From Elusimicrobia bacterium RBG_16_66_12 (lineage in GTDB: Bacteria > Elusimicrobiota > Elusimicrobia > UBA1565 > UBA9628): 42,443 nt of DNA. The translations under genes were made by a program, and so were the position numbers. Below are positions 7,230-41,087 of this stretch, one piece after another. The DNA lies in contig MGUL01000041.1 of the NCBI GenBank assembly GCA_001800005.1, positions 31,855-74,297 of the forward strand, in the 5' to 3' direction. A model generated the notes under the pieces. The model saw only the letters and a program-made list of their open reading frames with translations, was not told the DNA's origin and searched no databases. Numbering within the stretch: position 1 is the stretch's first letter; the number at the start of each line of letters is the position of its first letter.

Positions 7230-7234
7230 TTCGA

Positions 7235-8961: not shown

Positions 8962-9049
8962 CGCTACCTCTCTGACCGTCGTTATTTCGGGTCAATAACG
9001 ATGCCAGCGGGTCAACGGCGAACACGGGCGAGGGGCAATATTGAGCCCT

Positions 9050-11981: not shown

Positions 11982-12047
11982 CGCCGTCTTACCAAGCACT
12001 TGTGCCGACGCGCGCTTTCTTCGGCAGGTCTGAAATCGATTAGCTGA

Positions 12048-14654: not shown

Positions 14655-15394
14655 TTGCGCGCGATGAGGCCGACGCTCTCGCGGCCGTCGAGCTGGATGT
14701 CGGGCGGGAACTCGGGACGCGCGAAAGTCCCCAGCTTCTCGATCGTAAAGCCCGCCCCGCTGAAGACGCGCTTCAGCGTCGCCTCGTCGAGCAGGTGCAT
14801 CCGGCTCGGCAGGTTCCCGGCCCTTCCGGGATCGTGGGCGGCCACGTTTTCGACGATGCCGGGCCACAGGTCTCCCGCCTTGACTCGGGCCTCGTAGGTC
14901 GGGAAGAAGGCCTTGGCCGTTCCGATGAAGGGCGTCTCGCCCACGACGAAGACCTTCCCTCCGGGCGCGAGCCAGCTCATGACCTTTGCGGCCGCCCGCT
15001 CGATCGTGGGCCCGTCGAAGAAGTGCATGACGCGGCAGACGAGGACCGCGCCCAGGGTCCCGGGAGCGAACGTGATGCCGTCCGGGAAGCTCCCCGGCAT
15101 GAGCGTCAACCGCTCCCTGAGCCGCTCCAGCGCGCGGGCGCGCAGTATCTCCAGATGCCTCTCGTCGATGTCGTTGGCGATGACCTTCGCGCCGTTGCTC
15201 AGCGCGTTGAGGCTCGCCACGCCGTAGGCCGCGCCGACGTCCAGGCACGGCCCGGGCGCGCCCGGAGCGAAGTCGACGAAGGCCTGGGAGTAGGGGTCCA
15301 GGCCGGATGTCATGTAGCCCATATTGTTGAGCGTGCGGACGAAGCCGTTGGGCTCAGGCTTCGGCATTATATTCGGATTGTCGGATGGATTCAT
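14651..15394 (-). CDS. Class I SAM-dependent methyltransferase (small-molecule/protein type)
   Basis: Motif I is PCLDVGAAYGVASLNAL. It is followed by VIANDIDERH and APGGKVFVV. The gene is ATGA-coupled to the kinase gene (14651-14654). Confidence 0.85.
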   Translation of the reverse strand: MNPSDNPNIMPKPEPNGFVRTLNNMGYMTSGLDPYSQAFVDFAPGAPGPCLDVGAAYGVASLNALSNGAKVIANDIDERHLEILRARALERLRERLTLMPGSFPDGITFAPGTLGAVLVCRVMHFFDGPTIERAAAKVMSWLAPGGKVFVVGETPFIGTAKAFFPTYEARVKAGDLWPGIVENVAAHDPGRAGNLPSRMHLLDEATLKRVFSGAGFTIEKLGTFARPEFPPDIQLDGRESVGLIARK

Positions 15395-15398
15395 AATT

Positions 15399-25597: not shown

Positions 25598-26442
25598 TAT
25601 TCTGTCCTCAGTAGCCCGGCTCCAGCCTTCGGCAGCCAGATAGCTGAATGGTGATCTCCGAATGCGATCGCTCGATCGCTCGCAAACTCAACGCCTACCC
25701 ATGCGCATACGACAGCATCCAATACGTCTTCGATCGCTTTGAGGCCCGGGGCCATACCCGGCTTCTCGAGGATTGTTAATGGGTCTGGGACCAACGCTGA
25801 GACACCGTGAATCCGCTGGCCCAAGGCAGCCCGGAGTTCGCCAAGTTTCTCTGCGACGAACCGGAACCGATCTATCGACATGAGCCCAACGTGATCCTTC
25901 GTGTACGCCCACCTACGCGCGACCTTGTACGGCAAACGATAATCAAGGCCGATCAGCTCGATGATGGCTGGGTGCGGATATGTCTCCAAGAAACATCCAG
26001 TGCGGACTGTGGCCCCAGCGGCCGCAAAGCTAAGTCCCAGCGCTCTAAGGGCATCAAAAACGATAGCCGCCTGCTTGCCCGGACGGTCCGGACTCGGCGA
26101 ATGTGTTCCCGCGCCACGCCCTGAGTATTGTCTTGAGATAGCATCGTCGGATGGCCGACGCCTAACAATACGCTTAGCGGATAGCGGCATATCAACAACA
26201 GCTATATCGACGCGCCCAATCCGAGCGAGCATACCAGCTGAACCTAAATGGGCCTTCGCCGACCAAACAGGAGTCTGGCCAATCTCTGCAAAGGAGCGTC
26301 CCACCCAAACCAACGTCGGCCGCCGGCCTTTGACATAATCAACCAAGGCAAGCCCCGAAGGGTTCTTCGTTGTCCACGCCGCGTCAAAGCCAAGAATCCT
26401 TAGACAGGCCATGGGCTTGCCGGCCTCTGAGACATCCCTCAT
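25597..26442 (-). CDS. DUF429-family protein (predicted RNase H-fold nuclease)
   Basis: The motifs RILGFDAAWTT, AVVDMPLS, LETYPHPAIIELIG...YK and IEDVLDAVVCAWVG follow the DUF429 pattern (GxD...DxP...ExxPh...DxxDA). An alternative start at ATG 26412 (MACLRILGFD) is possible. Confidence 0.75.
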   Translation of the reverse strand: MRDVSEAGKPMACLRILGFDAAWTTKNPSGLALVDYVKGRRPTLVWVGRSFAEIGQTPVWSAKAHLGSAGMLARIGRVDIAVVDMPLSAKRIVRRRPSDDAISRQYSGRGAGTHSPSPDRPGKQAAIVFDALRALGLSFAAAGATVRTGCFLETYPHPAIIELIGLDYRLPYKVARRWAYTKDHVGLMSIDRFRFVAEKLGELRAALGQRIHGVSALVPDPLTILEKPGMAPGLKAIEDVLDAVVCAWVGVEFASDRAIAFGDHHSAIWLPKAGAGLLRTE

Positions 26443-29400
26443 CAGTGTCCTGACCGAGGGCTTCGACGCGGGGTGCTCACTTCCACGGACTTGCGTTCAG
26501 GATGGCAGCATTTCGGATCTGCCGGAGATGGATCAAGTCGAGTTTGAAAAGGGTTGCCGGCACGAATAGATTTGTGCAAGTCATCGTAAATCTCAAGTAT
26601 GACACGCTTGGTCCGATAATCGCCGCCGAACTTCTCTTCATCCTTCCGCCTTACGAGTGGGAAAGTATCCATTATGTGCTCGATAGCGTGGCGCGGCGTC
26701 GGAAACACCTGTGTGAGGTTATCGGGTTGACGCCGCCACTCGTCTTCGGTGCCGAGGTATAGATGGAAGAACGCGGCGTCAAGTTCACATCGAAGCAAGA
26801 ATCGACGTTCGGCATCCCACTTAAAAGGTGGCCCGCTCCATCCGCAATCAGCGGCAAATGGCTCCAGATCCCACGCGGTATAGGTCAACTCTAACGCGCG
26901 GGGAAGAAGCCAATCTTTAGTAAGCAACTTCTTCTTCTGTGGTTTCCCACTTATACTCCACGGGCATATCGAGTCGAAGATTGCAGGAGAGAGGACGGGG
27001 AGTTGCCTGAAAACGTTGTATTTCAAATGCGTTCCGCCTACCTTCTGTCGCGCCGCAAAATCCGACACGAATGAGTCAAGGCAGGCTGGAAGCAACGCTA
27101 CATTTTCTGCAGACGCCGCCGCGGGGAACATCAGGAGAAAAGTGTCGCCACAGGCCGACAGCGGAATAACAGCGGAGATGAGGGTTCTTTCGTTCGTGCT
27201 ATTAGTGATGTCTCTCCACCCAAGGAGCCACTTCCTCTTCCATGAATCAGGAATTGTGGACGATACTTCTTTGCCGGGCACCCAGTCATGTGGCTGAATG
27301 CAGAACATGGGATCTTGCAGCTTCGATATATCCGGCTGCGGAAGTATCCCGACATTCAGCTGCGCCTGAGTCGCCCCATCGTAAGTCGAAAACCTGTGAT
27401 TAAACTGGTGTAGCATCTTAGCCTCATAAAGGGGCAAGTAAGCTAAACCATCTTTCTCAAATTTATTTCCCACAAGCTCCCAACCGTCCGAGGCTAGCTG
27501 CGCACGGGTTCGGAACAGGTGCGAATCGTTCGCCATATGAAACATCGCGCTAAAGGTCAGCCCCCACTGGTTGTCTTGGGGTGCTTCTTCTCGAATCAGC
27601 ACCGGATTTCGCCGATGTAGGGCTTTGCAAATTTCCGCGTCCCGGCCCGATCGGAATACCGGGCAGTTCTTGGCATTGGGATTCAAAAGCAATATTTCAT
27701 CTGCCGTAAGTGAAAACTTCCTCTCACTGTTCTGCACTTCATCTGGATGTCTCGCATAGAAAATGAATTCCGCGACGTCGGATGGTGCAAGGCGCCCACC
27801 AAAAATTAAGAGGCAGAATTTCATGGCGTGGTGAACGCCCGGAAATAAGAGATCTTCGTTTTCAAAACTCCAAAGGCTTGCAAGCGATTTATGTGACACG
27901 ATGTCTTGAAAGAAGAACTTCGTTGTCTCGTCCGTTGCGATTCCTGTAGGCAACACACAGCCGACGCGCCCTTTCGGACCTACATGGTTCTTCATTCCTT
28001 CCGCAAAAATGGCGTAAAGGTTAATGTCACCTCGTCCGCAAAGCGGATAGCGGCCACTATCGCGCATGAAGTGGCTTTCGCCTTCTGACCGGCGGACCGC
28101 AATCTGGAACTGTTCGCGCAGGGCCCGGTCCCCTGGCTCCGCGGAGTCGCTCAGCCGATTGATCAGGCGTTTTCTTTCAGCCGCATTCGGTGCATTTGCG
28201 ATGTCGGGACGTCGCTGGGCAAACCATTCCTTCTCTTGAAGTTTGACCCGTTCCCAAGGCGGGTTACCCAAAATTGCATCGAACCCTCCGCGAACAAAGA
28301 CCTCCGGAAACGCAAGATGCCAATGAAAGAAGTGATGACTTTCCGCGAGGCGCTGGACTTCGTCGAGTAGCGGCTGGTCGTGCTTGGATACCTGGCCATC
28401 GGCTAAGGAGTTAATCAATCCCTGAGTGATCCCGATTACACTCCGCTCATTATCCGGTTCACCGAAATATTTGCGCATGACGAAGGCGGAACACCATACA
28501 TCCGCAAGTCTCTTTTTCTGCCGGAATTCTTCGGTCCGCTCACTCTCTAGAAAGGCTCTTTCTTTACGGTGAACATCCTCTGGGCGGTCGTCGGGCAATT
28601 CGTCAAGTGCGGCGGCGGCTTGCTGCAGGCGTTCTTGGGTTTTAACATCCTGCGTGGCGAACAGATCACCAAAGCCACTGCGCTCGGCCTTATTCCGCTT
28701 CCTCAGAAGCGTGCAAGCCTTCTTGTCGTCCCCCTCGATCGCAGTAAAAGCATCGTCGGGCAAACCGGCGGAAATCAATTCTGGCGTGGTCCCAAGCAAG
28801 CTATTGCCCACACGAATGTGATGGTCGAGGAATGAAAGTGGCTTGCCAGGTTCAACTGCCTCAAGCCAGAGAGCGACACGGCAGAGCTCTACCGACATCG
28901 GATTGATGTCAACGGCGTATATGCAATGGCTAATAACCTGCCGCAGAGCGTGGCGCAGCTGGTCAGGCGCCGGTTCGTCGTCGCCGGCACGCACAAGCGC
29001 CAGACGACGGGCGATTCGTTGAGCCGCCGCAATGAGAAAGTGACCGCTCCCACAAGCTGGGTCGCAGACTTTCAGTGACAAGATGGCCGCCTCGGCGCTA
29101 GGAAATCCGAGGGTTTTGTAGTTGCGCAAGCGATTACTCAGAACGGGATTGAGGGCGCTGTCTAGCAGACAGTCCACCAGACTAGCAGGCGTGTAGTAGC
29201 TCCCGGAGGTCTTTCTATCGTTACCGGCAGCCTGCTTGAAGCTGAAACGGGGTACAGGCGAGGTCAGGACTATAGGATGCAGCTCTAAAAGGCTCTCATA
29301 GACTGCCCCGAATTCCTCCGTCGCAAGAGCTCCAAAATTCACTGGGAGCCTTTGCTTGGTTTTGGGGTCGTCAAACGAACATAGCCGGTCAAGAGCATGG

Positions 29401-30566
29401 AGAAGCGCGGAGTTACTCAGAAGGCATGTGCTTAGCGGTCCAAGGCTCTGAGGATCGAACAACTGTCCCCCGAACGCTGTTGTACCAAGCCGAGCCCCTT
29501 GTTCGGGATGTTCAAACAGCTCAAAAGTAGACAGGAGGGACAGCCAGGCATCACAGTGTCTCTCAGTCTTGAGGCCTCGCGTTCGCGCCAAACGACGCAG
29601 CCGTTGCACGCTATAGTAATCAAAGTAGGTGCGCAACTTCGCGACTGGCGTTTCCTTGGTGAAAATCAGGCCGCGATCCTCTACTACATTTAGAAATAGC
29701 AGGCGGTAGATCAGGCGCAATAAGAAGCCGAAGAATACTGTGTGTTCTAAAGTTCCAGCATCTATCTGCCCGCGGAGGGCCTTGTTTTCTGGATGTGCGA
29801 TAAATCCGGTGCCAAGGATTTCCAGCGCCTCGGTCACGGCCGTGCGTAATCCAGCACGAATGCGAGTCCCCTGCTCAATTGTGTCCTGATGATATCGCTC
29901 GATCAGGCTCTCAGCCGCGGTGCTATTCGTAACCGGAAGCCGACTAGCGTGCAACAATCGAAAGAGAATCGCAAAATCAGAAAAAAGGCCGTCAGTGAAG
30001 ATCCGATCGAGATCGAACTCCAGGTAGCTCAGTTTAATGAGACGTGAACTGTTGCGCAGCAAGCGCAATACGCGACCATTGGTGGCAAGGCCGTAGAGTT
30101 GTTCGCTCAAGTTGAGATATTCCTGAACTAGGCCGTGAGCCGACATGCGCAGCGTGGCGTTGACAGGCTTGCGGTCGAGCGCAGAGGGTTCGCGATAGCC
30201 GACAATCTGCACAGGTATTTGAGCTCGGTTCGAAGCGCGATGTGAAATATTGTAATTCTTGCCGTTTAGTTCGGTTCCCTTGGGTTGATACTCGAGCTGA
30301 TAGCCCAGCAGCCCTAAGAGGGGCATCATCCACTGCTGGCGCGTCTCAGTCGTGGCAGGCGAGTCAGCCTTGAGCGTGTCGAGTTTGCGCTGGAAGATAC
30401 GCCAATAGTCCTGAGCGTCGGCCCAGGCGCGGGCAATCTCGTCCTTAACCTTGGCGTCTGAATCTAGATTGAAATCTACGGGACGTTGCCCCGGCGCCTC
30501 CTCGATCCGTTCGAAGATATCAGATGAAAGAATCGCTCCTTCGATGCGGATACTAGGATAGTTCAC
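26442..30566 (-). CDS. Large N6-adenine DNA methyltransferase (Eco57I/PglX/DrmMI-like gamma-class, 1374 aa)
   Basis: Motif I is LKVCDPACGSGHFLIAAAQRI. Motif IV is FDAILGNPPWERVKLQEKEWF. Long N- and C-terminal extensions are present. The GTG start at 30566 forms a GTGA overlap with the upstream SNF2 stop. Confidence 0.9.
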   Translation of the reverse strand: MNYPSIRIEGAILSSDIFERIEEAPGQRPVDFNLDSDAKVKDEIARAWADAQDYWRIFQRKLDTLKADSPATTETRQQWMMPLLGLLGYQLEYQPKGTELNGKNYNISHRASNRAQIPVQIVGYREPSALDRKPVNATLRMSAHGLVQEYLNLSEQLYGLATNGRVLRLLRNSSRLIKLSYLEFDLDRIFTDGLFSDFAILFRLLHASRLPVTNSTAAESLIERYHQDTIEQGTRIRAGLRTAVTEALEILGTGFIAHPENKALRGQIDAGTLEHTVFFGFLLRLIYRLLFLNVVEDRGLIFTKETPVAKLRTYFDYYSVQRLRRLARTRGLKTERHCDAWLSLLSTFELFEHPEQGARLGTTAFGGQLFDPQSLGPLSTCLLSNSALLHALDRLCSFDDPKTKQRLPVNFGALATEEFGAVYESLLELHPIVLTSPVPRFSFKQAAGNDRKTSGSYYTPASLVDCLLDSALNPVLSNRLRNYKTLGFPSAEAAILSLKVCDPACGSGHFLIAAAQRIARRLALVRAGDDEPAPDQLRHALRQVISHCIYAVDINPMSVELCRVALWLEAVEPGKPLSFLDHHIRVGNSLLGTTPELISAGLPDDAFTAIEGDDKKACTLLRKRNKAERSGFGDLFATQDVKTQERLQQAAAALDELPDDRPEDVHRKERAFLESERTEEFRQKKRLADVWCSAFVMRKYFGEPDNERSVIGITQGLINSLADGQVSKHDQPLLDEVQRLAESHHFFHWHLAFPEVFVRGGFDAILGNPPWERVKLQEKEWFAQRRPDIANAPNAAERKRLINRLSDSAEPGDRALREQFQIAVRRSEGESHFMRDSGRYPLCGRGDINLYAIFAEGMKNHVGPKGRVGCVLPTGIATDETTKFFFQDIVSHKSLASLWSFENEDLLFPGVHHAMKFCLLIFGGRLAPSDVAEFIFYARHPDEVQNSERKFSLTADEILLLNPNAKNCPVFRSGRDAEICKALHRRNPVLIREEAPQDNQWGLTFSAMFHMANDSHLFRTRAQLASDGWELVGNKFEKDGLAYLPLYEAKMLHQFNHRFSTYDGATQAQLNVGILPQPDISKLQDPMFCIQPHDWVPGKEVSSTIPDSWKRKWLLGWRDITNSTNERTLISAVIPLSACGDTFLLMFPAAASAENVALLPACLDSFVSDFAARQKVGGTHLKYNVFRQLPVLSPAIFDSICPWSISGKPQKKKLLTKDWLLPRALELTYTAWDLEPFAADCGWSGPPFKWDAERRFLLRCELDAAFFHLYLGTEDEWRRQPDNLTQVFPTPRHAIEHIMDTFPLVRRKDEEKFGGDYRTKRVILEIYDDLHKSIRAGNPFQTRLDPSPADPKCCHPERKSVEVSTPRRSPRSGH

Positions 30567-33436
30567 GCTCCATCCTCCGGAAGAAGGATGTAAATGCCGA
30601 GCTGATCCATCGGCAGTACGGGATAAACCACCTGAAAGCGCTGCTTATCCATCAAGGCACTAAACCGCTCGTGTGCCGCAACCAGGCGCTTGGATTGTTT
30701 TTCCGCAATCCCATCGAACTCAGCACCGAGCTTATCAAGCAATTTTAGTTCATTGACTAGAAAGCTTGCGCGGGCCTGTGGGGACAGATCGCTAGATGCA
30801 CGAGCAACGGCCAGGATATCTTTGGCCTCCGCGTGATCAAGGAACTCTTTCTGATCAGGAGCTCCGCGCCAACCCCAAAGCAACATTTCTTCGGCGACAA
30901 TCTGAGGCCCCCCTTTGCCTTGTTCGATTACGTTTCGGCACCGAAAGAGCAACAACGTCGTCTTCTTGGCGACTTGCTTAGTGCGGATGACTGCAGCACG
31001 CGCAGCGCGCTTGTCCTGCCGGCCGAGGGTATTCGCCATCACAAGCTGACAAAGCTGTTCCACGAAGCGATGGTTGCGGCCAAGATAGTGATAGCCCTCT
31101 GCCGTCGGAGACTCAAAGCTCACCTTCACGATTCTGCCTGCCGGCAACAGATCGACAAGCTGCGCGGGAAGGTTCCCCATAACAAGTCCGTAGCCGTCCT
31201 TCTCTTTCGCAATCTGGACGCCGAACAGGCCCGAAAGAGCGGCAGTAACGAACTCCTCGACAGCCTTTACATTGCCGATGGCCTCATCGACCGCATGCAA
31301 ATCTTCCGCAATCTCCTGCGCCTTGATTGCATTTTGGGCGAAGATGCTGCGGGATGCTTTTTCTCGCTCGGCAGCCTCGTCGATTTTTCGACTGACATTA
31401 GCTTTGGCTAGAGCCGCCTCGCCGAACTCGGTGAAGTCGAACAGCATTCGTTGGTCTGGGCCGCGCTTTCGTTCGATGCGTCGGTCAGGATTAAGAAGTA
31501 GCGCTTTGGTAATAGTGTCGATGATGCTCTGCGAATCTTCTGGAAATGGCACGTTGATGCCCGTCGCCCGTTTAATCTCTCGCACTTTACGCAAGAGCAC
31601 ATCCAGCACGATCCCATCGATGGGGTTATCTGTGCCATAAAGCAGGCACGCCTTAACTTCAGGTGCCTTCTGGCCGAAGCGGTCAACGCGGCCTTCACGC
31701 TGCTCCAGACGGTTGGGGTTCCAAGGAAGATCGTAGTGCAGAACGCCCGTGAAGGAATCCTGAAGGTTAATACCCTCGCTAAGGCAGTCGGTTGCAATTA
31801 GAACGCGCGGCCTGTCGCCTGCCATTTCGGCAATCCGATGCTTCCGAACATCATCGGGAAGTTCGCTCGTCACTACACGCAGATCGAGCTTCGGGTATTT
31901 CTTCCGGAGAACGGGTTCCAAATGCTTACCAAGGTAGTTCGCCGTTTCAATATAACGGCAGAAAACAACCGGCCTGAACCCTTTTTCAATCCAGTCTTCA
32001 AGAACGATCGCAGCCGCAAAAAGCTTCTGATCGTTCTTTATGTCCCCCAATTTCTCTAGGCGCTCAGCAAACTGACGCAGCTGTCTGCGCTGATGATCAC
32101 TCCATTCAGCATAATCCACGACCTGACTAAGCGCGTTGTCGCTCTCGAAGCCGAAGTCGGGGTCACGAACAGGGTTTTCCGCCTCTGGATCGGATTCCGT
32201 CAAAGCGTCCTCAGCGCCGGCCTCTACCGCGGTTCCGAGCTTCCCAGAACGCGCGTTGAGCATTTTTACACCGGCAGCCGGACTAGACATCACCCCACGC
32301 AGCAAAGCCAATGCAGTCCAATATTGGACTCGCTTCGTTCTCTGGCTAGATCCGTCGGGCACGACCATCTTTTGTGCGAAAGCTAATATCTCTTCGAAAA
32401 AAGCTGCATATTGACGGGATAGGTCGTAAGGCCACTCGAATGCTTCACGCGTAGGGAATGGAGTATCCTCACCCATCCACTTCTCTACGTCGGCACGCTT
32501 ACGTTGGACAAAGTGCTGGGCGAGCTCGCGCCGCTCCGCCTGGGAGGAGTTTGGCAGATCGAGAGTCTCGAATTGAGGTTTGAGTAGTCCTAATAGAGAC
32601 TGGAACTCGTCGGGCTTGCCGCTGTGTGGAGTAGCCGTAAGAAGAACTAAGTGCTGGCCGGGCTTTGCGGCGATTTTGCTTATCAGATGGAAGCGTTGCT
32701 GCTGAGCAGAAGAGGCGCCAGCGGGTCGCGCGCAGGTGTGCGTTTCGTCAACAATCACGAGTTCCGGGCACTGCTCGATAAAGACATCTCTGCGATTGTC
32801 GGATTTGATGAAGTCGATGCTGATGATCTGATAGGGGTAGTAGTCATAAACACTGGCATCGCCTTGAATCTGACGATCCAGCCGAGCTTGAGTATTAGAA
32901 CGAATGATCACCGCTTCAATGTCGAGTTTAGACCGGATTTCCTCTTGCCACTGCTCGCAGAGATGAGGCAAACAAACGACCGCAAAGCGCTTGATCTTCC
33001 GTCGCTCAAGAAGCTCCCGCACGATGAGCAACGCTTCAATCGTCTTACCGACACCGACGTCATCAGCGATAAGTAGCCGCACAACGTCCTGCCGTAGCGC
33101 CATGATCAATGGAACGATTTGGTATGCGCGAGGACGGAATGAAAGCTTGGCGAGCGCACGGAACGGTCCCGCGCCGTTGCGGAACGCCAGACGAGCAGAG
33201 TCGTATAGGAGCCGGGCAGTACTTACGTCCCCAAGATCGCTCGGTTCCGGCGCATTGAATCGGGCGTCCACGGGCTGGTCGCGCTCTATCTTGAGTGGCA
33301 GGTAGATGCCGGCAATCTCTTCGTCAGACCCGCCCAGAGGCTTGACGATGAGCATATCCGGGTCGTTCGACGGCATGACCACCCACTCGCGGCCCCGAAG
33401 CGAGACGAGCTCACCCGGTTGTCGGAGAGCTTTCAA
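30563..33436 (-). CDS. SNF2-family helicase (first copy, 957 aa; DrmD-like)
   Basis: Motif I is LLIADDVGVGKTIEALLIV. Motif II is LVIVDETHTC. Motif III is LVLLTATPHSGKPDEF. Motifs V/VI are VLIATDCLSEGINLQ...VLHYDLPWNPNRLEQREGRVDRFGQ. The TTG start at 33436 forms a TTGA overlap with the helicase stop. Confidence 0.9.
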   Translation of the reverse strand: MKALRQPGELVSLRGREWVVMPSNDPDMLIVKPLGGSDEEIAGIYLPLKIERDQPVDARFNAPEPSDLGDVSTARLLYDSARLAFRNGAGPFRALAKLSFRPRAYQIVPLIMALRQDVVRLLIADDVGVGKTIEALLIVRELLERRKIKRFAVVCLPHLCEQWQEEIRSKLDIEAVIIRSNTQARLDRQIQGDASVYDYYPYQIISIDFIKSDNRRDVFIEQCPELVIVDETHTCARPAGASSAQQQRFHLISKIAAKPGQHLVLLTATPHSGKPDEFQSLLGLLKPQFETLDLPNSSQAERRELAQHFVQRKRADVEKWMGEDTPFPTREAFEWPYDLSRQYAAFFEEILAFAQKMVVPDGSSQRTKRVQYWTALALLRGVMSSPAAGVKMLNARSGKLGTAVEAGAEDALTESDPEAENPVRDPDFGFESDNALSQVVDYAEWSDHQRRQLRQFAERLEKLGDIKNDQKLFAAAIVLEDWIEKGFRPVVFCRYIETANYLGKHLEPVLRKKYPKLDLRVVTSELPDDVRKHRIAEMAGDRPRVLIATDCLSEGINLQDSFTGVLHYDLPWNPNRLEQREGRVDRFGQKAPEVKACLLYGTDNPIDGIVLDVLLRKVREIKRATGINVPFPEDSQSIIDTITKALLLNPDRRIERKRGPDQRMLFDFTEFGEAALAKANVSRKIDEAAEREKASRSIFAQNAIKAQEIAEDLHAVDEAIGNVKAVEEFVTAALSGLFGVQIAKEKDGYGLVMGNLPAQLVDLLPAGRIVKVSFESPTAEGYHYLGRNHRFVEQLCQLVMANTLGRQDKRAARAAVIRTKQVAKKTTLLLFRCRNVIEQGKGGPQIVAEEMLLWGWRGAPDQKEFLDHAEAKDILAVARASSDLSPQARASFLVNELKLLDKLGAEFDGIAEKQSKRLVAAHERFSALMDKQRFQVVYPVLPMDQLGIYILLPEDGA

Positions 33437-36400
33437 CGGACCTTCCGGAAAATATCCGGCCGCTGGGCGATCCTAGCCCCTAGATTCTCTCGATAATGCC
33501 AGACCCACACTTCGCCCCCTTGAGCGATAATTGCTTGGCGCTGGCTCTCGTCGCGGGCCTGGACCTCGGGAGTGTCATGTGGCGATCCATCACAGAAGAC
33601 CCAAAATCGCGGCTCGTAATAGAAGTCAGGCTGGCAGTAAATCCCTTCGATTCTTTTTTGCGCCGCATCAGGGAGGCGAAAGCCGCCGTCGTAGAGGTGC
33701 TTGATGAATGCGCGCTCGGTCGACGAGTTGGGGTCGAGATGCCGCAACATCGCTTGATGCTGCTCTTCGTAATCCCGAAACCCGGTATTCGTCTGAATCT
33801 CGATGTCGCACAGCGCAAGTTTATCCAGCGCCTCGCGAATTGCAAAGCGATCGATAACGTGATGGTCGCGCTGGTTATAGTAACTGAGCAGATCGTCGTA
33901 GGATGCCGGCGCCAGGTACTTCGGGTCGTCATAGCGGCAGATCTTCTTCGCCGCTTCGATTACTTTGCGGAATGTTTGAACGTTTTCAACGAATTGCGAA
34001 AGAATCCCGAGGCTTCCTTCGGAAGCTTCGTAGAGAAGAATGTTAGGCGCCTCGGCATCACCAACGGAAACCACTCCGATCTCACTCGGTTCCACCTGAA
34101 AGACCGTCTCTATCGCCCTCTTGAGCGCGTGCTGGAGCGTAATGACCCCCGCCCACGCCAACCCAAGCGGCTGTATAGGCTCGATATACATCGCATCAGC
34201 TACATTCGAGGTGAAGAGTTTGACCAGCCGGAACTCTTCACGCATTGTGTCATCGGGTTCGGGCATCGAACTCTGCCAATTACCGGAGGTCAGGCCTATC
34301 GGGAAACCCTCCACTTTTTGCGTGCGCCACTTCATGTTCACGTGGATGAGCCGCGCCGCGGGTATATAACGCAGGTTTAGAAGAGCGGTCCCGCTCGATC
34401 GGGCGATCGCCTTGCGGACCCGATCTAATGGCCCGCCATCAACCGCGAAATAAGTCTGGATATCAAAGCCTCGGGAGACACGCTCCTCCTCCTCACATGA
34501 AATCCGATCGACCTCCTCTGCGCGAGACTCGGACATTTCCAGCAGATCATGAAGATGCTCTTTGTTCGCATTGTCGGCGAGATTCACTCCGGAGAAGGGA
34601 CAAATCTCCAAGTCCTTCTGTTCACCGGTCAGGTAGTATCCCGCCTTGGTGCTGATCTTCGCTTCAGTCAGCGAGGACTCTGCATCCTGCAACACCATCT
34701 GATCCACCTTATACTTCCGGCCGTTGTGATAAATGACGTTAAGTGGACCGAATTCACGCAGTGCGATCGCGCGGGGGCGAGAGATGAACTCACCAGATGA
34801 GCCGCCGGTCGGCACGAAAATGCGAATCGGTAGCCGCGTGAAGTTATACCCAGGAAGGAATCCCTCGGAGGCGAGGTAACGATACGGGTAAAATTCTGAC
34901 AGGGTGGCAGATCCGGAGGTGTCGTTTCGCAGGAGATTGAGCTGACGATTGGCCTGATCCTGGTGGCGCTTGTACTTCTTGTATTCGTCACTGCTCACGC
35001 TGAGTCGTCCACTGTCGATCGGCTGAGTGGCCCGCGTAAGCAGCGACCGCGCGGAGCGATATAGGCGACGCCAGCGTTTCATCGCATCATCGAGCTTATC
35101 GTCGAGTTTGCTCAGGTTCTGATCAAGCCAGGCATCTGAATACCACGAATTCGCTCGCGTATCGAGATCCGTCTCAAAGTCTTTGATTACGCGCCGAAAT
35201 GTTGCCTTGATTGCGGTATAAGCCGCTGGAGAAATCTTCAGCCCTTCACGAACACCCGGCGCGAGAGGCATGTCGGCATTGTCATCGCTGACAAAGCGCA
35301 TCAGCGACGGCCGGTCGCCGCCTTCTGAGTCCAAACCAGGCAACCCGATCTCACTGATTGCCAGCGCATTCAGGTGCGTAACGAGAAGCTCTTGATTGCA
35401 CAAGTCCAGTCTGGGCGCCTGTACGGCGCCGGCGACCAGCTCCGCTTGCTGCTGGAAGTAGTGGCGATCATGAGCAGAGTAGCTCGAGCAATAGGTGAAC
35501 ACTAGAGCCCCTTGGCCGCTTCTTCCTGCGCGTCCCGAGCGCTGCGTATAATTCGCAGCGTTGGGCGGAGCGTTTCGCATATGGACCACACTCAAGCCGC
35601 CGATATCGATACCAAGTTCCATCGTTGGCGAGCAGAAAAGCGCGCTAATCGATCCACTGCGGATACGCGCCTCGTCGAGTTGCGTCTTCGCCTCGTCGAC
35701 ATACCAATCCGCGCGGAATCGGTCTTCCCGCTCTTGTCGGGCTTCCGTATTGAGTTGGCCCGTGTGATCCTCTGCCCGGAGCCTTTTGCCCTGCGAGACA
35801 TCCCGGCGATACATATCGCGAAAGAAAACATTCGGCTTCGGTTTCTGATCTTTGTAGGAACGGCGTTTGATGACATCCGGTTTTACCGCTTCACCATCAC
35901 CGAGCTTCCATTGGATCTTCTCGATCCGAAGACGGAATACCGGAACCTCGACATTCTTTTCGCTTCGCGCGCTCTGCTGAGATAAATAGTCAGCTTCTTT
36001 GAGCTTACCCATCAGCTTCATGATGAAGTCGCGGTAAAGGTCGCCTTTGAGATCGAGCTCGATCCCCTTATAGTTAGCGAAGTGCTTTATGTACTTCCCG
36101 AGAGCGCTGGCCCGTCCCATGCTTTTTGAGGCCAGACGCGCGGACTTGTGGAGCGGCTCAAGGCGGATGACACAAGGCTCACGAAGATCTTCTTTCGGAT
36201 CGAGCGTCCACGGTGCTTTAAGCTGCTCGCGGAAGTGCTTTTCAAATTCCTTCAAGCGCACGGCCGTCAGGAAGTTCTCGCTGTGGAGCGCATACTCCAA
36301 GCGGAAGAAGTCGAGGATCGTGGAGAGGAAATCCTTCCTATCCGCGTGAGACAGGTTGGAAACCAAGGGCATATCCGCCCAGAATTTATCCTCGGCGACG

Positions 36401-38604
36401 ATCTCGCCAAGATTTACGTAGTCAATATTCAATAGGCCGCACTGTTCTAAGTTCGGGAGCACAATACGCCAACTGCGCCGAAGATCAGAAACCGCCCGAT
36501 AAAAGAGATATGCCTGGAACGTCTGCTCGTAATCTCGACGAACCGTCGCGAGCGCAGGCTCCTGATCCCGGTTGCCAAAGTCGAGAAACGGCAGGGCGAG
36601 CGCCTTAAATACGGCCTCGCCGATATTGGCATAGGTCAATGTCTCGTTGGGTGCGCTTGCAAGCGCCTTGCGTATGCCCGCGCGAAGCTGAACAACTTGC
36701 ACGAAATCGTTGAAGTGTCCGGCCTGAAGCGCGGCGTCCTGTCGGTTATCTGTGAAGCTTAGGAGCTTCTGGTCCCGGGTTTGATACCCGGCGTCGTTCA
36801 GCTGATTTAGAATCGAGAAGGCCGTGATCGTGGTCGAGGTACTACGACCTTCGCTGCCGAGCTTCGTGAGCTTGGTCCCCTCCCGCATCTTGGCGTCGAA
36901 GAACACGCCCCCCGTAGGATCGAAAAGGAGCGGCGCCTCCATGAACCAGCCCCAGAACTTCATTGGTTTAGAATCTGAGCAGTTTCCAAATTCATCGAAG
37001 TGGATTTTTTTCGGGAAAAACGCAGCCTTTTTCGAATCGGGGACTGGGCCGCTCTTCGTTTGCCTAAACCACGCCTCGGGCAAATAATCGGAATCGACAG
37101 CGGGGTCCCACACCTCCTCTCCAACGATCAAATACCCGTCCGTCGTCTCTCCCTCCTCATCCTCGCTACTCTCACGGAACTCACGCGGTTCCAGTTGATC
37201 ACCGGCGCGAGACACGCAGATGAAAGGGAACCCAGTCGCGCGACTAAAGACATTCGGGAAGATCGGCTTTTTATTCTTGTCGTCTTGCTTGTAAATTCCC
37301 GGCTCGAGCGTGATGAAGCGGTTCTCATCCTGATCAAGCGTCGTGTAGACAGCACCCGTCTGGGCAATGAACTGGTGCAGTCGGAAAGGCAGCAGCGTGT
37401 AGCGAGATCCGCTGTTCTGAACTTCCTTGTTGATCGAACTAATCCACAGCAGCATGCTCTCTAGGCATTTTCGGCAGGCGTCCTCAGTTAGACCGGAGTC
37501 CTCAACGAGACGGGCGATTACAGTGCTGATGCGATGTGGCCGCTGACGCACCAACTTGCCTTCTCGTTCTTCGAGGGCTATCCGATTCTCGAGCCATATC
37601 GCGACGGGGTGCACTTTAAGTTTTGCCGCGTCGTATTTGGGGTTTAGGCCCGCGTTGATCGCTGCGGCGAGCGCCGAGCGTGTCGGGAGAGCGCCCGAAG
37701 GCTCAAGTGAGCGACTGAGCGTCTCTGTTATGACCTGATCGGGGGTGAATGGGCGTCCGAACATCGTTGTGGCAACCCGCGCGACCTGTTCTCGCTGAGA
37801 GACGAGGCTGCCAACAGAGACCATGGTCGCGGATGTGCCAATGCACGCGACCGGCTGCTTGCATTGCGCTCGAATTCTTCGGATGAGCATTGCAACGTCC
37901 GCGCCCTGGCGACCGCGGTAAGTATGCAGCTCATCAAATACTAGATAACGGAGATTTTCATAAATTGCATCACGGATCGGACGCTCCTGCACTCGCGTGA
38001 GCAGGAGTTCCAACATCATATAGTTCGTCAGAAGAATCTGGGGCGGATTCTCCCGCATTGCTATGCGGCGCTCTTCCTTTTCCTGGCCTGTATACTGGCC
38101 GAAGCTGATCGGGAAAGCCTTGCCCGTGCTCTTCTCGTAATTCTCTTTATATGTCTTGAATTCGTTGGTCTGAGAATTGATCAGGGCGTTCATTGGATAG
38201 ACAACAACCGCCGTACCACCCTTAGAACCTGGTTCAGTAAGAAGGCGATGGAAAATCGAAGCGATGTAGGTAAGCGATTTACCGGAGCCTGTTCCAGACG
38301 TCACAACGAAATCCTGGCCTGCAGTGCCGAGCTTGATCGCCTCCAGCTGGTGGCGATATAGCGAATAGCCTTTGAAAATGTCAGCCGTAGCGCCGTGCAA
38401 CACGCCGCCGGCGGCAACGGTACCAATGCCGCCAACCGTCTCGTAGGACGGATTGAATTGGAGCAGCGGCTGGGGCCAGAGTTTTCCTTCATCAAGCGCA
38501 GCCTCAACCGCTTCACGGATTGCCGGATCGGCGATGTTTATGAAGCTGCGGATGTAGCTGGCGTAGTCGCCAACAATCTTGGAATGAGTTTCGAAGACGT
38601 TCAT
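33433..38604 (-). CDS. 1723-aa SF2 (Lhr/YprA-type DEAD/DEAH) helicase fused to DUF1998 and a C-terminal Vsr/DUF559-like PD-(D/E)xK domain (DrmA+DrmB-like or DruE-like)
   Basis: Walker A is FVVTSGTGSGKSLTYI. Motif II is LVFDELHTYRGRQGADVAMLIRRI. Motif III is GTSATM. Motifs V/VI are SPTMELGIDIGGL...YTQRSGRAGRSGQGALVFTY. The DUF1998-type region is YRYLASEGFLPGYNFTRLP...ILLYEASEGSLGILSQF. The last ~98 aa (33436-33729) read STERAFIKHL...YCQPDFYYEPRFWVFCDGSPHD...RDESQRQAIIAQGGEVWVW. Confidence 0.9.
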   Translation of the reverse strand: MNVFETHSKIVGDYASYIRSFINIADPAIREAVEAALDEGKLWPQPLLQFNPSYETVGGIGTVAAGGVLHGATADIFKGYSLYRHQLEAIKLGTAGQDFVVTSGTGSGKSLTYIASIFHRLLTEPGSKGGTAVVVYPMNALINSQTNEFKTYKENYEKSTGKAFPISFGQYTGQEKEERRIAMRENPPQILLTNYMMLELLLTRVQERPIRDAIYENLRYLVFDELHTYRGRQGADVAMLIRRIRAQCKQPVACIGTSATMVSVGSLVSQREQVARVATTMFGRPFTPDQVITETLSRSLEPSGALPTRSALAAAINAGLNPKYDAAKLKVHPVAIWLENRIALEEREGKLVRQRPHRISTVIARLVEDSGLTEDACRKCLESMLLWISSINKEVQNSGSRYTLLPFRLHQFIAQTGAVYTTLDQDENRFITLEPGIYKQDDKNKKPIFPNVFSRATGFPFICVSRAGDQLEPREFRESSEDEEGETTDGYLIVGEEVWDPAVDSDYLPEAWFRQTKSGPVPDSKKAAFFPKKIHFDEFGNCSDSKPMKFWGWFMEAPLLFDPTGGVFFDAKMREGTKLTKLGSEGRSTSTTITAFSILNQLNDAGYQTRDQKLLSFTDNRQDAALQAGHFNDFVQVVQLRAGIRKALASAPNETLTYANIGEAVFKALALPFLDFGNRDQEPALATVRRDYEQTFQAYLFYRAVSDLRRSWRIVLPNLEQCGLLNIDYVNLGEIVAEDKFWADMPLVSNLSHADRKDFLSTILDFFRLEYALHSENFLTAVRLKEFEKHFREQLKAPWTLDPKEDLREPCVIRLEPLHKSARLASKSMGRASALGKYIKHFANYKGIELDLKGDLYRDFIMKLMGKLKEADYLSQQSARSEKNVEVPVFRLRIEKIQWKLGDGEAVKPDVIKRRSYKDQKPKPNVFFRDMYRRDVSQGKRLRAEDHTGQLNTEARQEREDRFRADWYVDEAKTQLDEARIRSGSISALFCSPTMELGIDIGGLSVVHMRNAPPNAANYTQRSGRAGRSGQGALVFTYCSSYSAHDRHYFQQQAELVAGAVQAPRLDLCNQELLVTHLNALAISEIGLPGLDSEGGDRPSLMRFVSDDNADMPLAPGVREGLKISPAAYTAIKATFRRVIKDFETDLDTRANSWYSDAWLDQNLSKLDDKLDDAMKRWRRLYRSARSLLTRATQPIDSGRLSVSSDEYKKYKRHQDQANRQLNLLRNDTSGSATLSEFYPYRYLASEGFLPGYNFTRLPIRIFVPTGGSSGEFISRPRAIALREFGPLNVIYHNGRKYKVDQMVLQDAESSLTEAKISTKAGYYLTGEQKDLEICPFSGVNLADNANKEHLHDLLEMSESRAEEVDRISCEEEERVSRGFDIQTYFAVDGGPLDRVRKAIARSSGTALLNLRYIPAARLIHVNMKWRTQKVEGFPIGLTSGNWQSSMPEPDDTMREEFRLVKLFTSNVADAMYIEPIQPLGLAWAGVITLQHALKRAIETVFQVEPSEIGVVSVGDAEAPNILLYEASEGSLGILSQFVENVQTFRKVIEAAKKICRYDDPKYLAPASYDDLLSYYNQRDHHVIDRFAIREALDKLALCDIEIQTNTGFRDYEEQHQAMLRHLDPNSSTERAFIKHLYDGGFRLPDAAQKRIEGIYCQPDFYYEPRFWVFCDGSPHDTPEVQARDESQRQAIIAQGGEVWVWHYRENLGARIAQRPDIFRKVR

Positions 38605-40581
38605 TTAAGCTAGCCACTCCGGCGGCACAAGCTTCTTTCCGCTGCGCCACTCTTCTACAAGATGAAGGTCAGGAATTTGGCCCCAGACATCCGAACCTGC
38701 ATGGTCGAGCACAATAATTTGCATCCGGTCACCGCTGTCCCGCACGACCGCGGACATGAGGCTAAACACTTTCCGAACTGCCTCGAGATCTTCGTCCTTA
38801 AGCTTTGGATCCTCGTCCTCTTGTGACGCTTTACCCGCAAGCCGTACAGGGAAGTAGACTTGGCTCGGCTGGTCGTAGACGACAAAGTTTGGCACAGGGC
38901 TGAAGGGAAGCCCGAGGAAAAACTGATGTAGCCCCAAGGACACGGCAACGTGATAGGAGAGCCAGTTTGAACCGCTCCCGATCTCCCATAGGAAGTCTTC
39001 TCTATCGATGCCTTTCACCTTGATCGAAAGGTCCGGGATTGAAAGGGAAATCGGATCGTTGGGCCGTTCAGCATCCAATTTTGGGATTAACTTTCCCGCA
39101 TTGAGGCTCACCGCATCCAGGGCGCGCTTTGTCTTTGCGCGGATCGCGCCCTCCGAAATGGCGAGTTCGAGGGCGGCCACCTGTTCCTCGAGCGACTTGA
39201 CCTCGTTATCAAGATTGCTGTCGTGCCCAATCTGGGAATAGAGTTGGAGCGATTGCTCAAGGTTTCCGATGAAGCGTGAGACTCGAAGGGAATCGTAGTA
39301 GGTCTGCTTTGCTTGAGAGGATCGCTTTTCAACAGCGTCTCGCCTAATCTTTATTCCATCAAGCTGCTCCGTAGTCTGCCGGATCTCAGTCTTCACTCGC
39401 TCCAACTCGCGATCAAAGGCAGCAGGCACGTTGCCGGCCTGCCCCGCGGACTCCTCAACGGTGCGAAGCGCTGTGCAGAGTGTCGCTAACCGCTCTTTCG
39501 CTTCTGTGATAGCATGCCCACATACAGGGCAGTCATTGCCGCCGCTGTGCATTGTGGCGAGCCAGTCCGAGATTTTGAGGCGATCTCGTTGAAGATGCAG
39601 GGCTCCCTCATATTCCTTGCTCGTCTTCCTGAGAGTCTCCATCTCGCCAAGTCGTCGCCTTAGCCCCGAAAGACGCATGGAGACCTGGGATTCCTCGGCC
39701 TGAAGGCCCACGAACTCTTGAACTGCCTCTTCAACCGTCTCTGATGTGACCTTATTGCCTGATCCGGCAGGACGCTCGACTACCTTTGAAAGCAAATCAA
39801 CAAGCTGGGCTTGGCTAGCATTCTGAGGTATTGGTTGATCGACAAGTCCTAATTCCCGTGCTTCTGTGGCCTTGGCCCGAATCTCAGCCATCCATCGTTC
39901 AGAAACCTGGCGCGCCGTCGCCAACTCGCCCTTCTTCCGGCGAAGCTCACGCCTTAATTTCTCAAGCTCATGCTGTTTAGCGAGGAGCTGCGGGGTAACG
40001 GCATTCAGGACATACGGGAAGATAGTTTGAAGTTTCTGCGAGTGCTCAGGCCGATCAGCCTTGTAGAACAAGATGTCGGGGTTCGCGACGACGTTTTGCG
40101 GCTGGAACAGAAACGGGCCGAGGTCCCTGAAACTTGGTCGAGACAGAAAGCTCGCGTCAGAGTCGTTGGGATCGAAATCTAGATTGGTCAAGCCTGCGAG
40201 TTCATCAAGCATTCGCTTTACAGCTCGAACGTTGGAGTTGCTTTGCGTGATCTGCGCGGGGATATCGACCTTGGGCGCCTCAACAACGAACATATCGCCC
40301 GTCGATTTCTGTGAACCAGGCTCTCTACGCGCGAATAACTTCTCGCCGGCCGCAGTCTGAACAACGACACCAAACCATTCACATGCGTTGCGGATGGTTA
40401 ATACCGGAATCGAGCACTTGTCGGATCCAAGACAGTAGTCGATTATTGGAATGATGGCCGATTTGCCCGTACGCGAGGAGCCGCTTATCACGTTTACGCC
40501 GTTGGTCTTAAACGGGAGTCGTCTCGGCAAAATTCCGGACTTCTTCGGCCACAGGACTATCTCTTTGATTTGGAATTGCAT
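38605..40581 (-). CDS. ABC-3C system ABC ATPase (DUF3732; SMC/Rad50-like with coiled coil and CxxC hook)
   Basis: Walker A is VISGSSRTGKSAIIPIIDYCLGS. The coiled coil spans ~aa 200-480 with CPVCGH at its midpoint (aa 351-356). The DUF3732 hallmark is FVVYDQPSQVYFP. The Walker B/D-loop is MQIIVLDHAG. The TAA stop (38605-38607) directly abuts the ATG of the helicase gene. Confidence 0.85.
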   Translation of the reverse strand: MQFQIKEIVLWPKKSGILPRRLPFKTNGVNVISGSSRTGKSAIIPIIDYCLGSDKCSIPVLTIRNACEWFGVVVQTAAGEKLFARREPGSQKSTGDMFVVEAPKVDIPAQITQSNSNVRAVKRMLDELAGLTNLDFDPNDSDASFLSRPSFRDLGPFLFQPQNVVANPDILFYKADRPEHSQKLQTIFPYVLNAVTPQLLAKQHELEKLRRELRRKKGELATARQVSERWMAEIRAKATEARELGLVDQPIPQNASQAQLVDLLSKVVERPAGSGNKVTSETVEEAVQEFVGLQAEESQVSMRLSGLRRRLGEMETLRKTSKEYEGALHLQRDRLKISDWLATMHSGGNDCPVCGHAITEAKERLATLCTALRTVEESAGQAGNVPAAFDRELERVKTEIRQTTEQLDGIKIRRDAVEKRSSQAKQTYYDSLRVSRFIGNLEQSLQLYSQIGHDSNLDNEVKSLEEQVAALELAISEGAIRAKTKRALDAVSLNAGKLIPKLDAERPNDPISLSIPDLSIKVKGIDREDFLWEIGSGSNWLSYHVAVSLGLHQFFLGLPFSPVPNFVVYDQPSQVYFPVRLAGKASQEDEDPKLKDEDLEAVRKVFSLMSAVVRDSGDRMQIIVLDHAGSDVWGQIPDLHLVEEWRSGKKLVPPEWLA

Positions 40582-41087
40582 TAGAAGCTTACCTTGAGGT
40601 TGACCGAGATTTCATGAAGGGACAACTGCCCACACCATCCGCCAAGCTTCTCAACTGCGCGGCTCAGTGGGCGGATGGATTCTGGAATACCAGCCTTGGG
40701 GGCGGTCACGGACGAGGCAAGTACGTTTCCTTTAGCCGCATCCAGCAGGAGCAACTTCGTAGAAAATGCGAGTCGGAGCGCTTCAAGTGAAAGCGGGCGC
40801 ATGGTCGTTGCTCGTCCTTGAATTGCCAGGATCAAATCGTTCTTGGATACGCTCGATTCGCTGAATTTGCCGATGAACGCGCGAAGCCCCGAGGCTAGTC
40901 GAGTGGAATGAAGTTGCTCCATCGTCTCAACGTGAAACGCGATTGGGAGAACTAAAAATAGCAGTGGTAACGGCGGCGGGCTATGAGTGGGGTTTGCTTC
41001 GGTATAGCCGACAACGAACCGCCATAGAAGTAGGGCGCCGAGAGCAGGGTTCTGTACGTTGTTCGCTTCGACGCTGAGGACGCTCAT
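40581..41087 (-). CDS. ABC-3C middle component-like protein (168 aa)
   Basis: The size, the position between effector and ABC ATPase, and the N-terminus NPALGALLLWRFVVGY...LPLLFLVLPIAFH match my recollection of ABC three-component middle components. Both junctions overlap (ATGA at 41084-41087; TAATG at 40579-40583). Confidence 0.65.
   Translation of the reverse strand: MSVLSVEANNVQNPALGALLLWRFVVGYTEANPTHSPPPLPLLFLVLPIAFHVETMEQLHSTRLASGLRAFIGKFSESSVSKNDLILAIQGRATTMRPLSLEALRLAFSTKLLLLDAAKGNVLASSVTAPKAGIPESIRPLSRAVEKLGGWCGQLSLHEISVNLKVSF

Follow-up and report, generated by a model that had tools for sequence, protein, structure and literature searches.

The window analysed here, a stretch of 42,443 nucleotides (nt) from Elusimicrobia bacterium RBG_16_66_12 (contig MGUL01000041.1, positions 31,855 to 74,297; all coordinates below are those of the window), encodes on its minus strand a protein of 1723 amino acids (aa) that joins a superfamily 2 (SF2) helicase core, a DUF1998-type region and a C-terminal nuclease-like domain in a single chain. 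We read this protein as the ArmC-type YprA-family helicase-nuclease of an ARMADA Type I anti-phage system, acting together with the SNF2 ATPase and the N6-adenine methyltransferase encoded downstream of it, and assign this reading a probability of about 0.85. The open reading frame (ORF) begins with an ATG placed immediately after the TAA stop codon of the upstream gene and ends with a stop codon at 33433-33435. Its start is right, because N-terminus and length are common to the 120 homologous clusters listed in the database search (1703-1733 aa, 70-91% identity, full length), and the single 1723-aa ORF of the preliminary description, which had been made from the DNA letters alone, is thus real. 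The gene and its parts are as follows.

33433..38604, minus strand: whole gene, probable ArmC-type YprA-family helicase-nuclease of ARMADA Type I (ORF, 120 full-length clusters, accessions in Table S1 of Bell et al.)
37822..38355, minus strand: RecA1 lobe of the SF2 core, aa 84-261, with Walker A GTGSGKS, DELH and SAT (Pfam DEAD, motif positions)
35758..37821, minus strand: insert of ~690 aa between RecA1 and the Helicase_C signature, aa 262-949 (DruE3 profile, scheme of Bell et al., Cys columns)
35350..35757, minus strand: C-terminal part of the RecA2 lobe, aa 950-1085, with motif VI QRSGRAGR (Pfam Helicase_C, alignment to 9tu7, motif)
34885..35349, minus strand: helical linker, aa 1086-1240, in which two long antiparallel helices (~1176-1197 and ~1206-1226) form a hairpin (AlphaFold2 model m6b2ae009bc11)
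33820..34884, minus strand: OB-CON-DUF1998 'canopy', aa 1241-1595, with an MZB match at aa 1490-1556, that is nt 33937-34137 (Pfam MZB, Cys-column comparison)
33436..33819, minus strand: Vsr/DUF559-type PD-(D/E)xK domain, aa 1596-1723, putative active site E1630, D1660, D1672, H1676-D1677 and D1685 (fold model, family matches, hhalign, conservation)

Every motif on which the preliminary description had based its complete SF2 core could be located in the protein (GTGSGKS at aa 104, DELH at 224, SAT at 258 and QRSGRAGR at 1021), so that Walker A, Walker B and motif VI are intact, and the same is true of the two sequences quoted for the DUF1998 side, EGFLPGYNFTRLP at aa 1247 and LYEASEGSLGIL at aa 1524. 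The Pfam families DEAD (aa 84-261, E 2.6e-25), Helicase_C (aa 950-1030) and MZB/DUF1998 (aa 1490-1556, 30.7 bits against a cutoff of 24.2) all score above their gathering thresholds, in the order characteristic of the YprA/MrfA family, with the SF2 core followed by DUF1998/MZB. The insert of ~690 aa sits where, in the scheme for ARMADA, RecA1 is followed by a BrxA-like domain and RecA2 is interrupted by beta-barrel and MarR-like domains, which also fill this region in the helicases of Druantia (Bell et al., 2025, bioRxiv, PMC12458937). A like content is only suggested here, by the position of the insert and by the PADLOC DruE3 model, whose alignment spans aa 80-425 and reaches through aa 262-425 of the insert. 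Matches of the helicase among the PDB sequences are two large helicase chains (9tu7 and 9wae) and MrfA/YprA, with aa 973-1083 aligning to the helicase chain of 9tu7. An AlphaFold2 model of aa 1085-1723, built on a shallow alignment, has a mean predicted local distance difference test score (pLDDT) of 56.6 and is unusable for OB-CON-DUF1998, which lies mostly below 50. Its linker hairpin (segment helices H92-113 and H122-142) is modelled with a pLDDT of ~80 and places helices at ~aa 1176-1226, where ARMADA Type I helicases have a coiled-coil finger between RecA2 and the OB fold.

The family assignment is drawn from homologs already catalogued by others. The proteins VUZ85671.1/MBZ0168146.1, HNO77160.1, MBE0613778.1 and MBX3650389.1, from Methylomirabilis, Phycisphaerae and Burkholderiales, are at least 70% identical to the window protein over the full length and are listed as 'ARMADA Type I helicase' in Supplementary Table S1 of Bell et al. 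(2025). That paper defines ARMADA Type I by the gene order YprA-like helicase, BrxHII-like helicase, PglX-like methyltransferase, attributes to the helicases of ARMADA I and II a C-terminal, predicted active Vsr-type nuclease, and places the ARMADA lineage with Druantia, not with DISARM. In clade, as judged by the listed homologs, in gene order and in its C-terminal Vsr-type domain the window protein agrees with Type I. In PADLOC the DruE models (DruE3, DruE1 and DruE2) come out on top, with E 1e-77 for DruE3 against E 5e-13 for DrmA; of the two affinities proposed in the preliminary description, fused DrmA/DrmB-like or DruE-like, the second is therefore the better one and the match to DrmA is weak. 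Its three-part anatomy (SF2 helicase, DUF1998 region lacking a Cys cluster, Vsr/DUF559-type domain) had been read correctly. The novelty it saw in the fusion of helicase, DUF1998 and nuclease is lost, because homologs with at least 70% identity had already been catalogued as ARMADA Type I and the protein falls inside a described family of the same architecture. Nor does the idea of a standalone 'sensor plus effector' hold, since the helicase is the first gene of a conserved three-gene cassette. Judged by sequence, the window locus is a further example of the catalogued ARMADA Type I, from its cysteine-poor clade. With the helicase-DUF1998-Vsr fusion and the three-gene system both on record since 2025, the finding as first stated contributes little.

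The terminal nuclease-like module does exist. For aa 1596-1723 AlphaFold2, given 26 homologous fragments, produced a model with a mean pLDDT of 87.7, a predicted template modelling score (pTM) of 0.80 and the order helix, helix, strand, strand, helix, strand. Its best Foldseek match in the PDB is the catalytic domain of I-Bth0305I, 3r3p (probability 1.00, E 0.012, template modelling score 0.56-0.61), the prototype of the Vsr-like 'EDxHD' family; the matches of lower probability (VRR-NUC, Hjc, FAN1, DdmD and EndoMS) are all PD-(D/E)xK nucleases, and the model of aa 1085-1723 again returned 3r3p and nothing further. Pfam scans of the last 199 aa, the last 399 aa and the 128-aa C-terminus of the window protein found no nuclease family, and a narrow profile of 26 close sequences (A1) gave nothing relevant against the PDB sequences and a probability of 0.3% against Vsr. 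A broader profile of 51 diverse C-terminal domains (A3) was required to detect the relationship to Vsr and DUF559. The underlying family set came from a search of 1.84 billion cluster representatives, which yielded 509 proteins with E up to 1e-30, the best 150 of which are mostly ~1650-1800 aa long and match right through to the C-terminal end. Within the 51 domains, Pfam recognises DUF559 in 39 (best E 3.6e-7), MTES_1575 in 25 and Vsr in 5, and against the PDB the A3 profile found seven matches only, including 3hrl (a DUF559 protein), 3r3p and three entries of E. coli Vsr. Fold model and family profile thus both uphold the PD-(D/E)xK fold that had been suspected. The module boundaries first given, 33436-33729, are approximately right, with the domain beginning nearer aa 1611-1626 than exactly at 1626.

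The hhalign comparison of the family profile with E. coli Vsr (a sequence verified to be identical to 1cw0) gave a probability of 72% and E 3.5e-5 and pairs the residues as follows, window protein first.

E1630: E25 of E. coli Vsr
D1660: D51
F1670-C1671-D1672: F62-T63-H64
D1685: D97

E25, D51, the F62-T63-H64 region and D97 are active-site residues of Vsr (Taylor et al.). The catalytic Glu, the Asp of the PD motif, the His and the helix Asp, which the Vsr/DUF559 clan carries in an alpha-beta-beta-beta-alpha-beta core, are all present in the window domain, and the set of E, D, D/N, H and D at 1630, 1660, 1672, 1676 and 1685 is intact in 71 of 81 family representatives, the remaining 10 having a truncated or degenerate domain; taken singly, E1630, D1660, D1672, H1676 and D1685 are each kept in 84-91% of the representatives, in both clades of the family. 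Since the five residues are intact in so many, the Vsr-like nuclease is probably active. The preliminary description had taken F-C-D-G, with a Phe where canonical members are acidic, as a possible sign of degeneration; active E. coli Vsr has F62-T63-H64-G at this place and the other catalytic positions are kept, and the motif is therefore the Vsr state, as opposed to the acidic residue of DUF559 and EDxHD proteins. Neither Vsr nor DUF559 has an equivalent of the motif RLPDxAQ at aa 1643-1649 (window region 33889-33909), which is nearly invariant in the Vsr-like domain of the family and might provide a contact surface or, through D1646, one more acidic residue.

Downstream of the helicase gene lie the other two genes of the cassette.

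30563..33436, minus strand: second cassette gene, SNF2-family ATPase of 957 aa, BrxHII/RapA/DrmD-like (Pfam, PADLOC, NCBIfam)
26442..30566, minus strand: third cassette gene, PglX/DrmMI-like gamma-class N6-adenine DNA methyltransferase of 1374 aa (Pfam, PADLOC, NCBIfam, motifs)

The helicase and SNF2 genes overlap by 4 nt, as do the SNF2 and methyltransferase genes. The ATPase matches Pfam SNF2-rel_dom and Helicase_C, the PADLOC models DrmD (E 1.7e-85) and BrxHII (E 2.8e-45) and NCBIfam RapA (E 3e-32), and the methyltransferase matches Pfam Eco57I, N6_Mtase and MmeI_Mtase, PADLOC DrmMI (E 1.9e-74), type IIG models and the NCBIfam BREX PglX models, with motif I (CDPACGSG) at aa 501 and motif IV (NPPW) at aa 768. 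A scan of genome contigs with the single protein gave only 4 loci, and the neighbourhoods compared here were drawn from homolog-encoding contigs and a plasmid collection. The order helicase, SNF2 ATPase, methyltransferase is found in all ten other loci that can be read past the helicase (L001, L003-L010 and L014, the last on a Paraburkholderia plasmid, NZ_LR699555.1 153053-165380); L009 and L010 belong to the cysteine-rich sister clade, and L010 has two extra interleaved genes. In seven loci an SNF2 protein 72-86% identical to that of the window stands after the helicase. Conservation of the methyltransferase is limited to aa 1-771 (~50% identity), that is up to NPPW, and aa 772-1374 (~600 aa) found no match in the seven other loci. 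Such a sharp divergence after NPPW is the pattern expected of a variable target-recognition part, and the C-terminus may well be a target-recognition region that has been swapped. At 1374 aa the window enzyme is also ~120 aa longer than the versions of 1237-1257 aa in L001 and L006-L008. Relatives of the helicase occur on 75 plasmids, including those of Deinococcus, Thermus, cyanobacteria and Paraburkholderia, where the copies are annotated merely as 'DEAD/DEAH box helicase', 'helicase-related protein' or 'DNA methyltransferase', so that current genome annotation misses the system.

The observation that the DUF1998 region has no obvious four-Cys cluster was borne out, as C1556 alone is left and L1564, S1568 and D1571 replace the other three ligands. 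Of the 17 Cys in the window helicase only two make up a CxxC (377-380), and no more than 39% of close homologs keep the second of this pair. Out of 80 full-length representatives of the family, 25 contain 4-7 CxxC and the other 55 at most one; the count is 0-2 (median 0) among the 120 close relatives of the window protein and 5-9 (median 7) among 118 relatives of one Cys-rich member. In the full-length alignment, in window numbering, the three Cys clusters of the Cys-rich group compare as follows.

Beta-barrel insert, Cys columns 454, 457, 562, 565: S, T, D, G in the window protein; Ser/Thr, Asp and Ser/Ala/Gly in the Cys-poor group
OB insert, Cys columns 1318, 1321, 1335, 1338: S, A, C, S in the window protein; mostly Ser/Thr in the Cys-poor group, with 1335 still Cys in about half
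DUF1998/MZB, Cys columns 1564, 1568, 1571 (the fourth, C1556, is kept): L, S, D in the window protein; Leu/Lys/Arg, Ser/Thr and Asp/Asn in the Cys-poor group

The DUF1998 site accordingly reads 'aCYeCLLSYtNQ' in the Cys-rich and 'aSYdDLLSYyNQ' in the Cys-poor group. A quick neighbour-joining tree has two clades, one uniting all 25 of the Cys-rich proteins (Chloroflexota, Moorella, Thermoflexus and Herpetosiphonaceae are among its named members), the other made up of 55 of the 56 Cys-poor ones, a count that takes in the window protein (Planctomycetota, Burkholderiales and Methylomirabilis, besides the window protein itself). According to Bell et al. (2025) the beta-barrel has at least two CxxC, the OB inserts 'almost always' carry Zn-binding modules, and the four-Cys cluster of DUF1998 characterises the entire family, Dpd alone having lost it. 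The window protein lacks the CxxC pairs of both inserts as well as the four Cys in DUF1998, and with these the MZB zinc site of YprA/MrfA. Table S1 of that paper lists members of both clades as ARMADA Type I, and the Type I gene order is seen in both; the loss of the Zn modules is therefore a variant within the family and no ground for exclusion. The split of Type I into a cysteine-rich and a cysteine-poor clade is absent from the describing paper. We see a slightly better than even chance that a large Type I lineage, monophyletic in the quick tree, has replaced its three Cys zinc modules together by Ser, Thr or Asp, with the helicase and nuclease motifs under strong constraint. If the members of this lineage are active zinc-free defence enzymes, the zinc sites of YprA-family immune helicases would be structural and dispensable, and not sensing, and the two sister clades would amount to a natural experiment on the role of zinc modules. 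The split into zinc-bearing and zinc-free proteins bears on the purpose of the many zinc modules found in defence helicases.

The cassette lies among other defence genes. After the methyltransferase gene, with start/stop overlaps of 1 nt, follow at 24107-26442 (minus strand) the genes of a DUF429 protein (281 aa; PADLOC candidate PDC-S44) and a DUF2779/Cas4-like protein (496 aa), which are also present in three metagenome contigs with an identical helicase. None of the 10 non-identical ARMADA Type I loci with readable flanks has the DUF429, DUF2779, PLD or second SNF2 genes of the window. Less likely than the joint replacement of the zinc modules is that the translationally coupled DUF429 and Cas4-like DUF2779 genes encode add-on effectors of the cassette. 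Further downstream, a packed trio at 18141-24096 (minus strand) encodes a 436-aa protein that received no assignment, a 628-aa PLD protein (PADLOC ZacB / PDC-M27B, with a DrmC-like HKD motif) and a 920-aa SNF2 helicase (PDC-M27C / ZacC); it looks like a PDC-M27-type candidate defence set. Directly upstream of the helicase gene, at 38605-42343 (minus strand), stands a complete Lamassu system, with LmuA carrying a CTD7 domain (419 aa), LmuC/MC3 (168 aa) and LmuB/DUF3732 (658 aa), the stop codon of LmuB abutting the ATG of the helicase. The fraction of guanine plus cytosine (GC) is ~0.51-0.60 over 18000-42443, which holds eleven co-directional defence genes, versus 0.64-0.71 in most of 1-9000 and 12000-17000, and this suggests that the low-GC block, at about 0.55, is a horizontally acquired island. 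No tRNA gene marking it was found within the window. A second low-GC patch (~0.50-0.52) at 9249-11981 (plus strand) contains ORFs of 291 aa (with a CoiA_N-like N-terminus), 213 aa (no match) and 297 aa (DUF4238), and these three had no PADLOC match. A TraG/TraD-type type IV coupling protein is encoded at 4322-6067 (minus strand), and a contig with an identical helicase has, upstream of its Lamassu system, genes for RadC, a sigma-70 factor and DUF6573 (L011, 1518-3555); together these point to an integrative or conjugative element as the carrier.

The content of the cassette could also be read as a class 1 DISARM in which DrmA and DrmB are fused, the SNF2 protein being DrmD and the methyltransferase DrmMI. 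The neighbours do match DrmD (E 1.7e-85 in PADLOC and E 3e-91 for NCBIfam DISARM_DrmD) and DrmMI (E 1.9e-74), helicase plus DUF1998 is the content of DrmA plus DrmB, and a PLD gene (20903-22789) lies ~3.6 kb downstream of the methyltransferase gene. However, the helicase scores far better with DruE than with DrmA (1e-77 vs 5e-13), the DrmD score of 307 bits is half of the NCBIfam cutoff of 610, and Bell et al. (2025) place the lineage with Druantia and list close homologs as ARMADA Type I. The PLD gene, for its part, adjoins the cassette in no other locus and pairs with its own SNF2 gene in a ZacB/PDC-M27-like arrangement. With helicase and DUF1998 in one ORF and no PLD gene conserved with the cassette, the locus departs from class 1 DISARM, and on the weak DrmA match, the DrmD score at half its cutoff and the missing conserved PLD gene we rejected this reading as highly improbable. 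A DruE of Druantia with unrecognised partners is slightly more improbable still. DruE3, DruE1 and DruE2 are the top PADLOC matches and the best PDB sequence matches, 9tu7 and 9wae (helicase chains of 2108 and 1970 aa with generic names), are taken as DruE-type, but PADLOC, Pfam and NCBIfam found no DruH, DruA-D or DruM/F/G among the window neighbours, and it is an SNF2 ATPase and an N6-adenine methyltransferase that are conserved as partners. At the C-terminus, moreover, Druantia III has a PLD pair and Druantia I/II an inactivated Vsr, where the window protein has a Vsr-type domain whose catalytic residues are conserved; with the wrong partners and a different type of C-terminal domain, Druantia was rejected as well. 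That the protein takes no part in defence and serves in housekeeping DNA repair as a helicase of MrfA/Lhr type, as might be thought from the similarity of its RecA lobes to MrfA/YprA and Lhr and from databases that name some homologs 'Lhr' or 'RhlB', has next to no probability, given the constant linkage to an SNF2 ATPase and a large methyltransferase, the integrases, transposases and toxin-antitoxin genes that adjoin relatives, the 75 plasmids carrying them, the place of the window gene within a low-GC defence island, and identities of at least 70% across different phyla, which imply horizontal spread.

A further alternative accepts the ARMADA Type I helicase and holds that its Vsr-like module is catalytically dead and serves in DNA binding or protein docking, another nuclease doing the cutting. 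The Phe at the Vsr F62 position, where DUF559 and EDxHD proteins have an acidic residue, would fit, as would the lack of a direct Pfam match for the window sequence, the inactivated Vsr of the related Druantia I/II helicases, the entry 'active?' for Type I in Bell et al. (2025), the truncated or degenerate domain of 10 of the 81 representatives and the Cas4-like DUF2779 gene that follows the cassette in the window island. Yet the active E. coli Vsr likewise has Phe at this position, each of the five catalytic residues is kept in 84-91% of the representatives of both clades, and no other nuclease gene is conserved beside the cassette, and we therefore regard a dead module as unlikely.

Some points weigh against the assignment to an ARMADA Type I helicase-nuclease as we understand it. 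Alone, the window sequence stays below significance against Pfam DUF559 and Vsr and against the PDB sequences, and the loop with H1676-D1677 aligns ambiguously with the loop of Vsr H69. Nuclease activity is a prediction only, for which Table S2 of Bell et al. (2025) likewise enters the Type I Vsr domain as 'active?', and a literature search found no experiment on any ARMADA Type I system, Bell et al. having tested only Type II. For OB-CON-DUF1998 and the inserts it is sequence conservation that suggests a fold retained with no zinc; a phmmer search of aa 1102-1625 against the PDB returned no match to MrfA, DrmB or a large helicase, and the zinc sites could for this reason not be compared with a solved structure. 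Finally, discrimination of self from non-self by methylation is put forward by analogy with DISARM and BREX.

For the ARMADA Type I system of the window the following mode of action can be envisaged. As is assumed from its relatives, the methyltransferase would mark a motif in host DNA that its variable C-terminal region recognises. The helicase would load onto single-stranded or forked DNA of an unmarked invader and move 3'-to-5', as MrfA and DruE do, and the C-terminal Vsr-like domain would then nick or cut the invader DNA, with D1660 and D1685 binding Mg2+ and H1676 acting as general base, while the SNF2 partner might help to find or clear the target. Defence would be direct and not abortive, as measured for ARMADA Type II, which needs the ATPase motifs of its helicases and the NPPW of its methyltransferase (Bell et al., 2025). 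In the literature DruE is a 3'-to-5' helicase that binds single-stranded DNA and requires its MZB domain, and it has been portrayed as an effector that combines helicase and nuclease and acts on replication intermediates. The compact, highly conserved three-gene version seen here, with identities of at least 70% between members from Planctomycetota, Burkholderiales and Methylomirabilota, would lend itself well to experiment, for which E1630, D1660, D1672, H1676 and D1685, mapped to the putative active site, are concrete mutation targets.

Compared with known systems, the C-terminal domain shares its fold with Vsr, DUF559 (3hrl) and I-Bth0305I (3r3p), together with their catalytic set of Glu, Asp (PD), His/Asn/Asp after the second strand, His and helix Asp. 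It lacks the zinc site and the intercalating Trp residues of Vsr, has Asp at the position of Vsr H64, as in DUF559, and has Phe at the position of the DUF559/EDxHD Glu, as in Vsr. With the protein on which the family was founded, Bacillus subtilis MrfA/YprA (6znp), the window protein shares the SF2 core and OB-CON-MZB; MrfA is ~750 aa long, with a four-Cys, zinc-bound MZB and neither large inserts nor a fused nuclease, and works in DNA repair with the exonuclease MrfB. Class 1 DISARM (DrmA, DrmB, DrmC, DrmD and DrmMI) shares a DrmD-like SNF2 protein, a DrmMI-like methyltransferase and a YprA-type helicase with DUF1998, but distributes helicase, DUF1998 and nuclease (the PLD protein DrmC) over separate polypeptides and has an EVE-like domain at the N-terminus of DrmA, whereas the window has one chain with a Vsr-type nuclease. 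DruE of Druantia I-III is the closest profile match and has the insert after RecA1 and the OB-CON-DUF1998 canopy in common with the window protein; its partners are DruH, DruA-D or DruM/F/G, the pair of SNF2 protein and N6-methyltransferase being absent, and its C-terminus is PLD (III) or an inactivated Vsr (I/II).

ARMADA Type II of E. coli (ArmA-D), which has been tested experimentally, resembles the window in its YprA-like helicase with a Vsr-type nuclease, its BrxHII-like SNF2 protein and its PglX-like NPPW methyltransferase. Its order is SNF2, methyltransferase, YprA, with a fourth gene, ArmD (a RelE-GajB-like helicase), neither of which is found in the window, and its helicase often carries extra inactive EEP and Vsr domains that the window protein lacks. 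ARMADA Type I as published has CxxC in the beta-barrel, Zn modules in the OB inserts and four Cys in DUF1998, all of them missing from the whole clade of the window protein, and its cassette is without DUF429 and DUF2779, both of which the window island has outside the conserved cassette. With Type I the window protein has in common the family, the gene order, the length class (~1700 aa), the C-terminal Vsr-type nuclease and the coiled-coil finger after RecA2.

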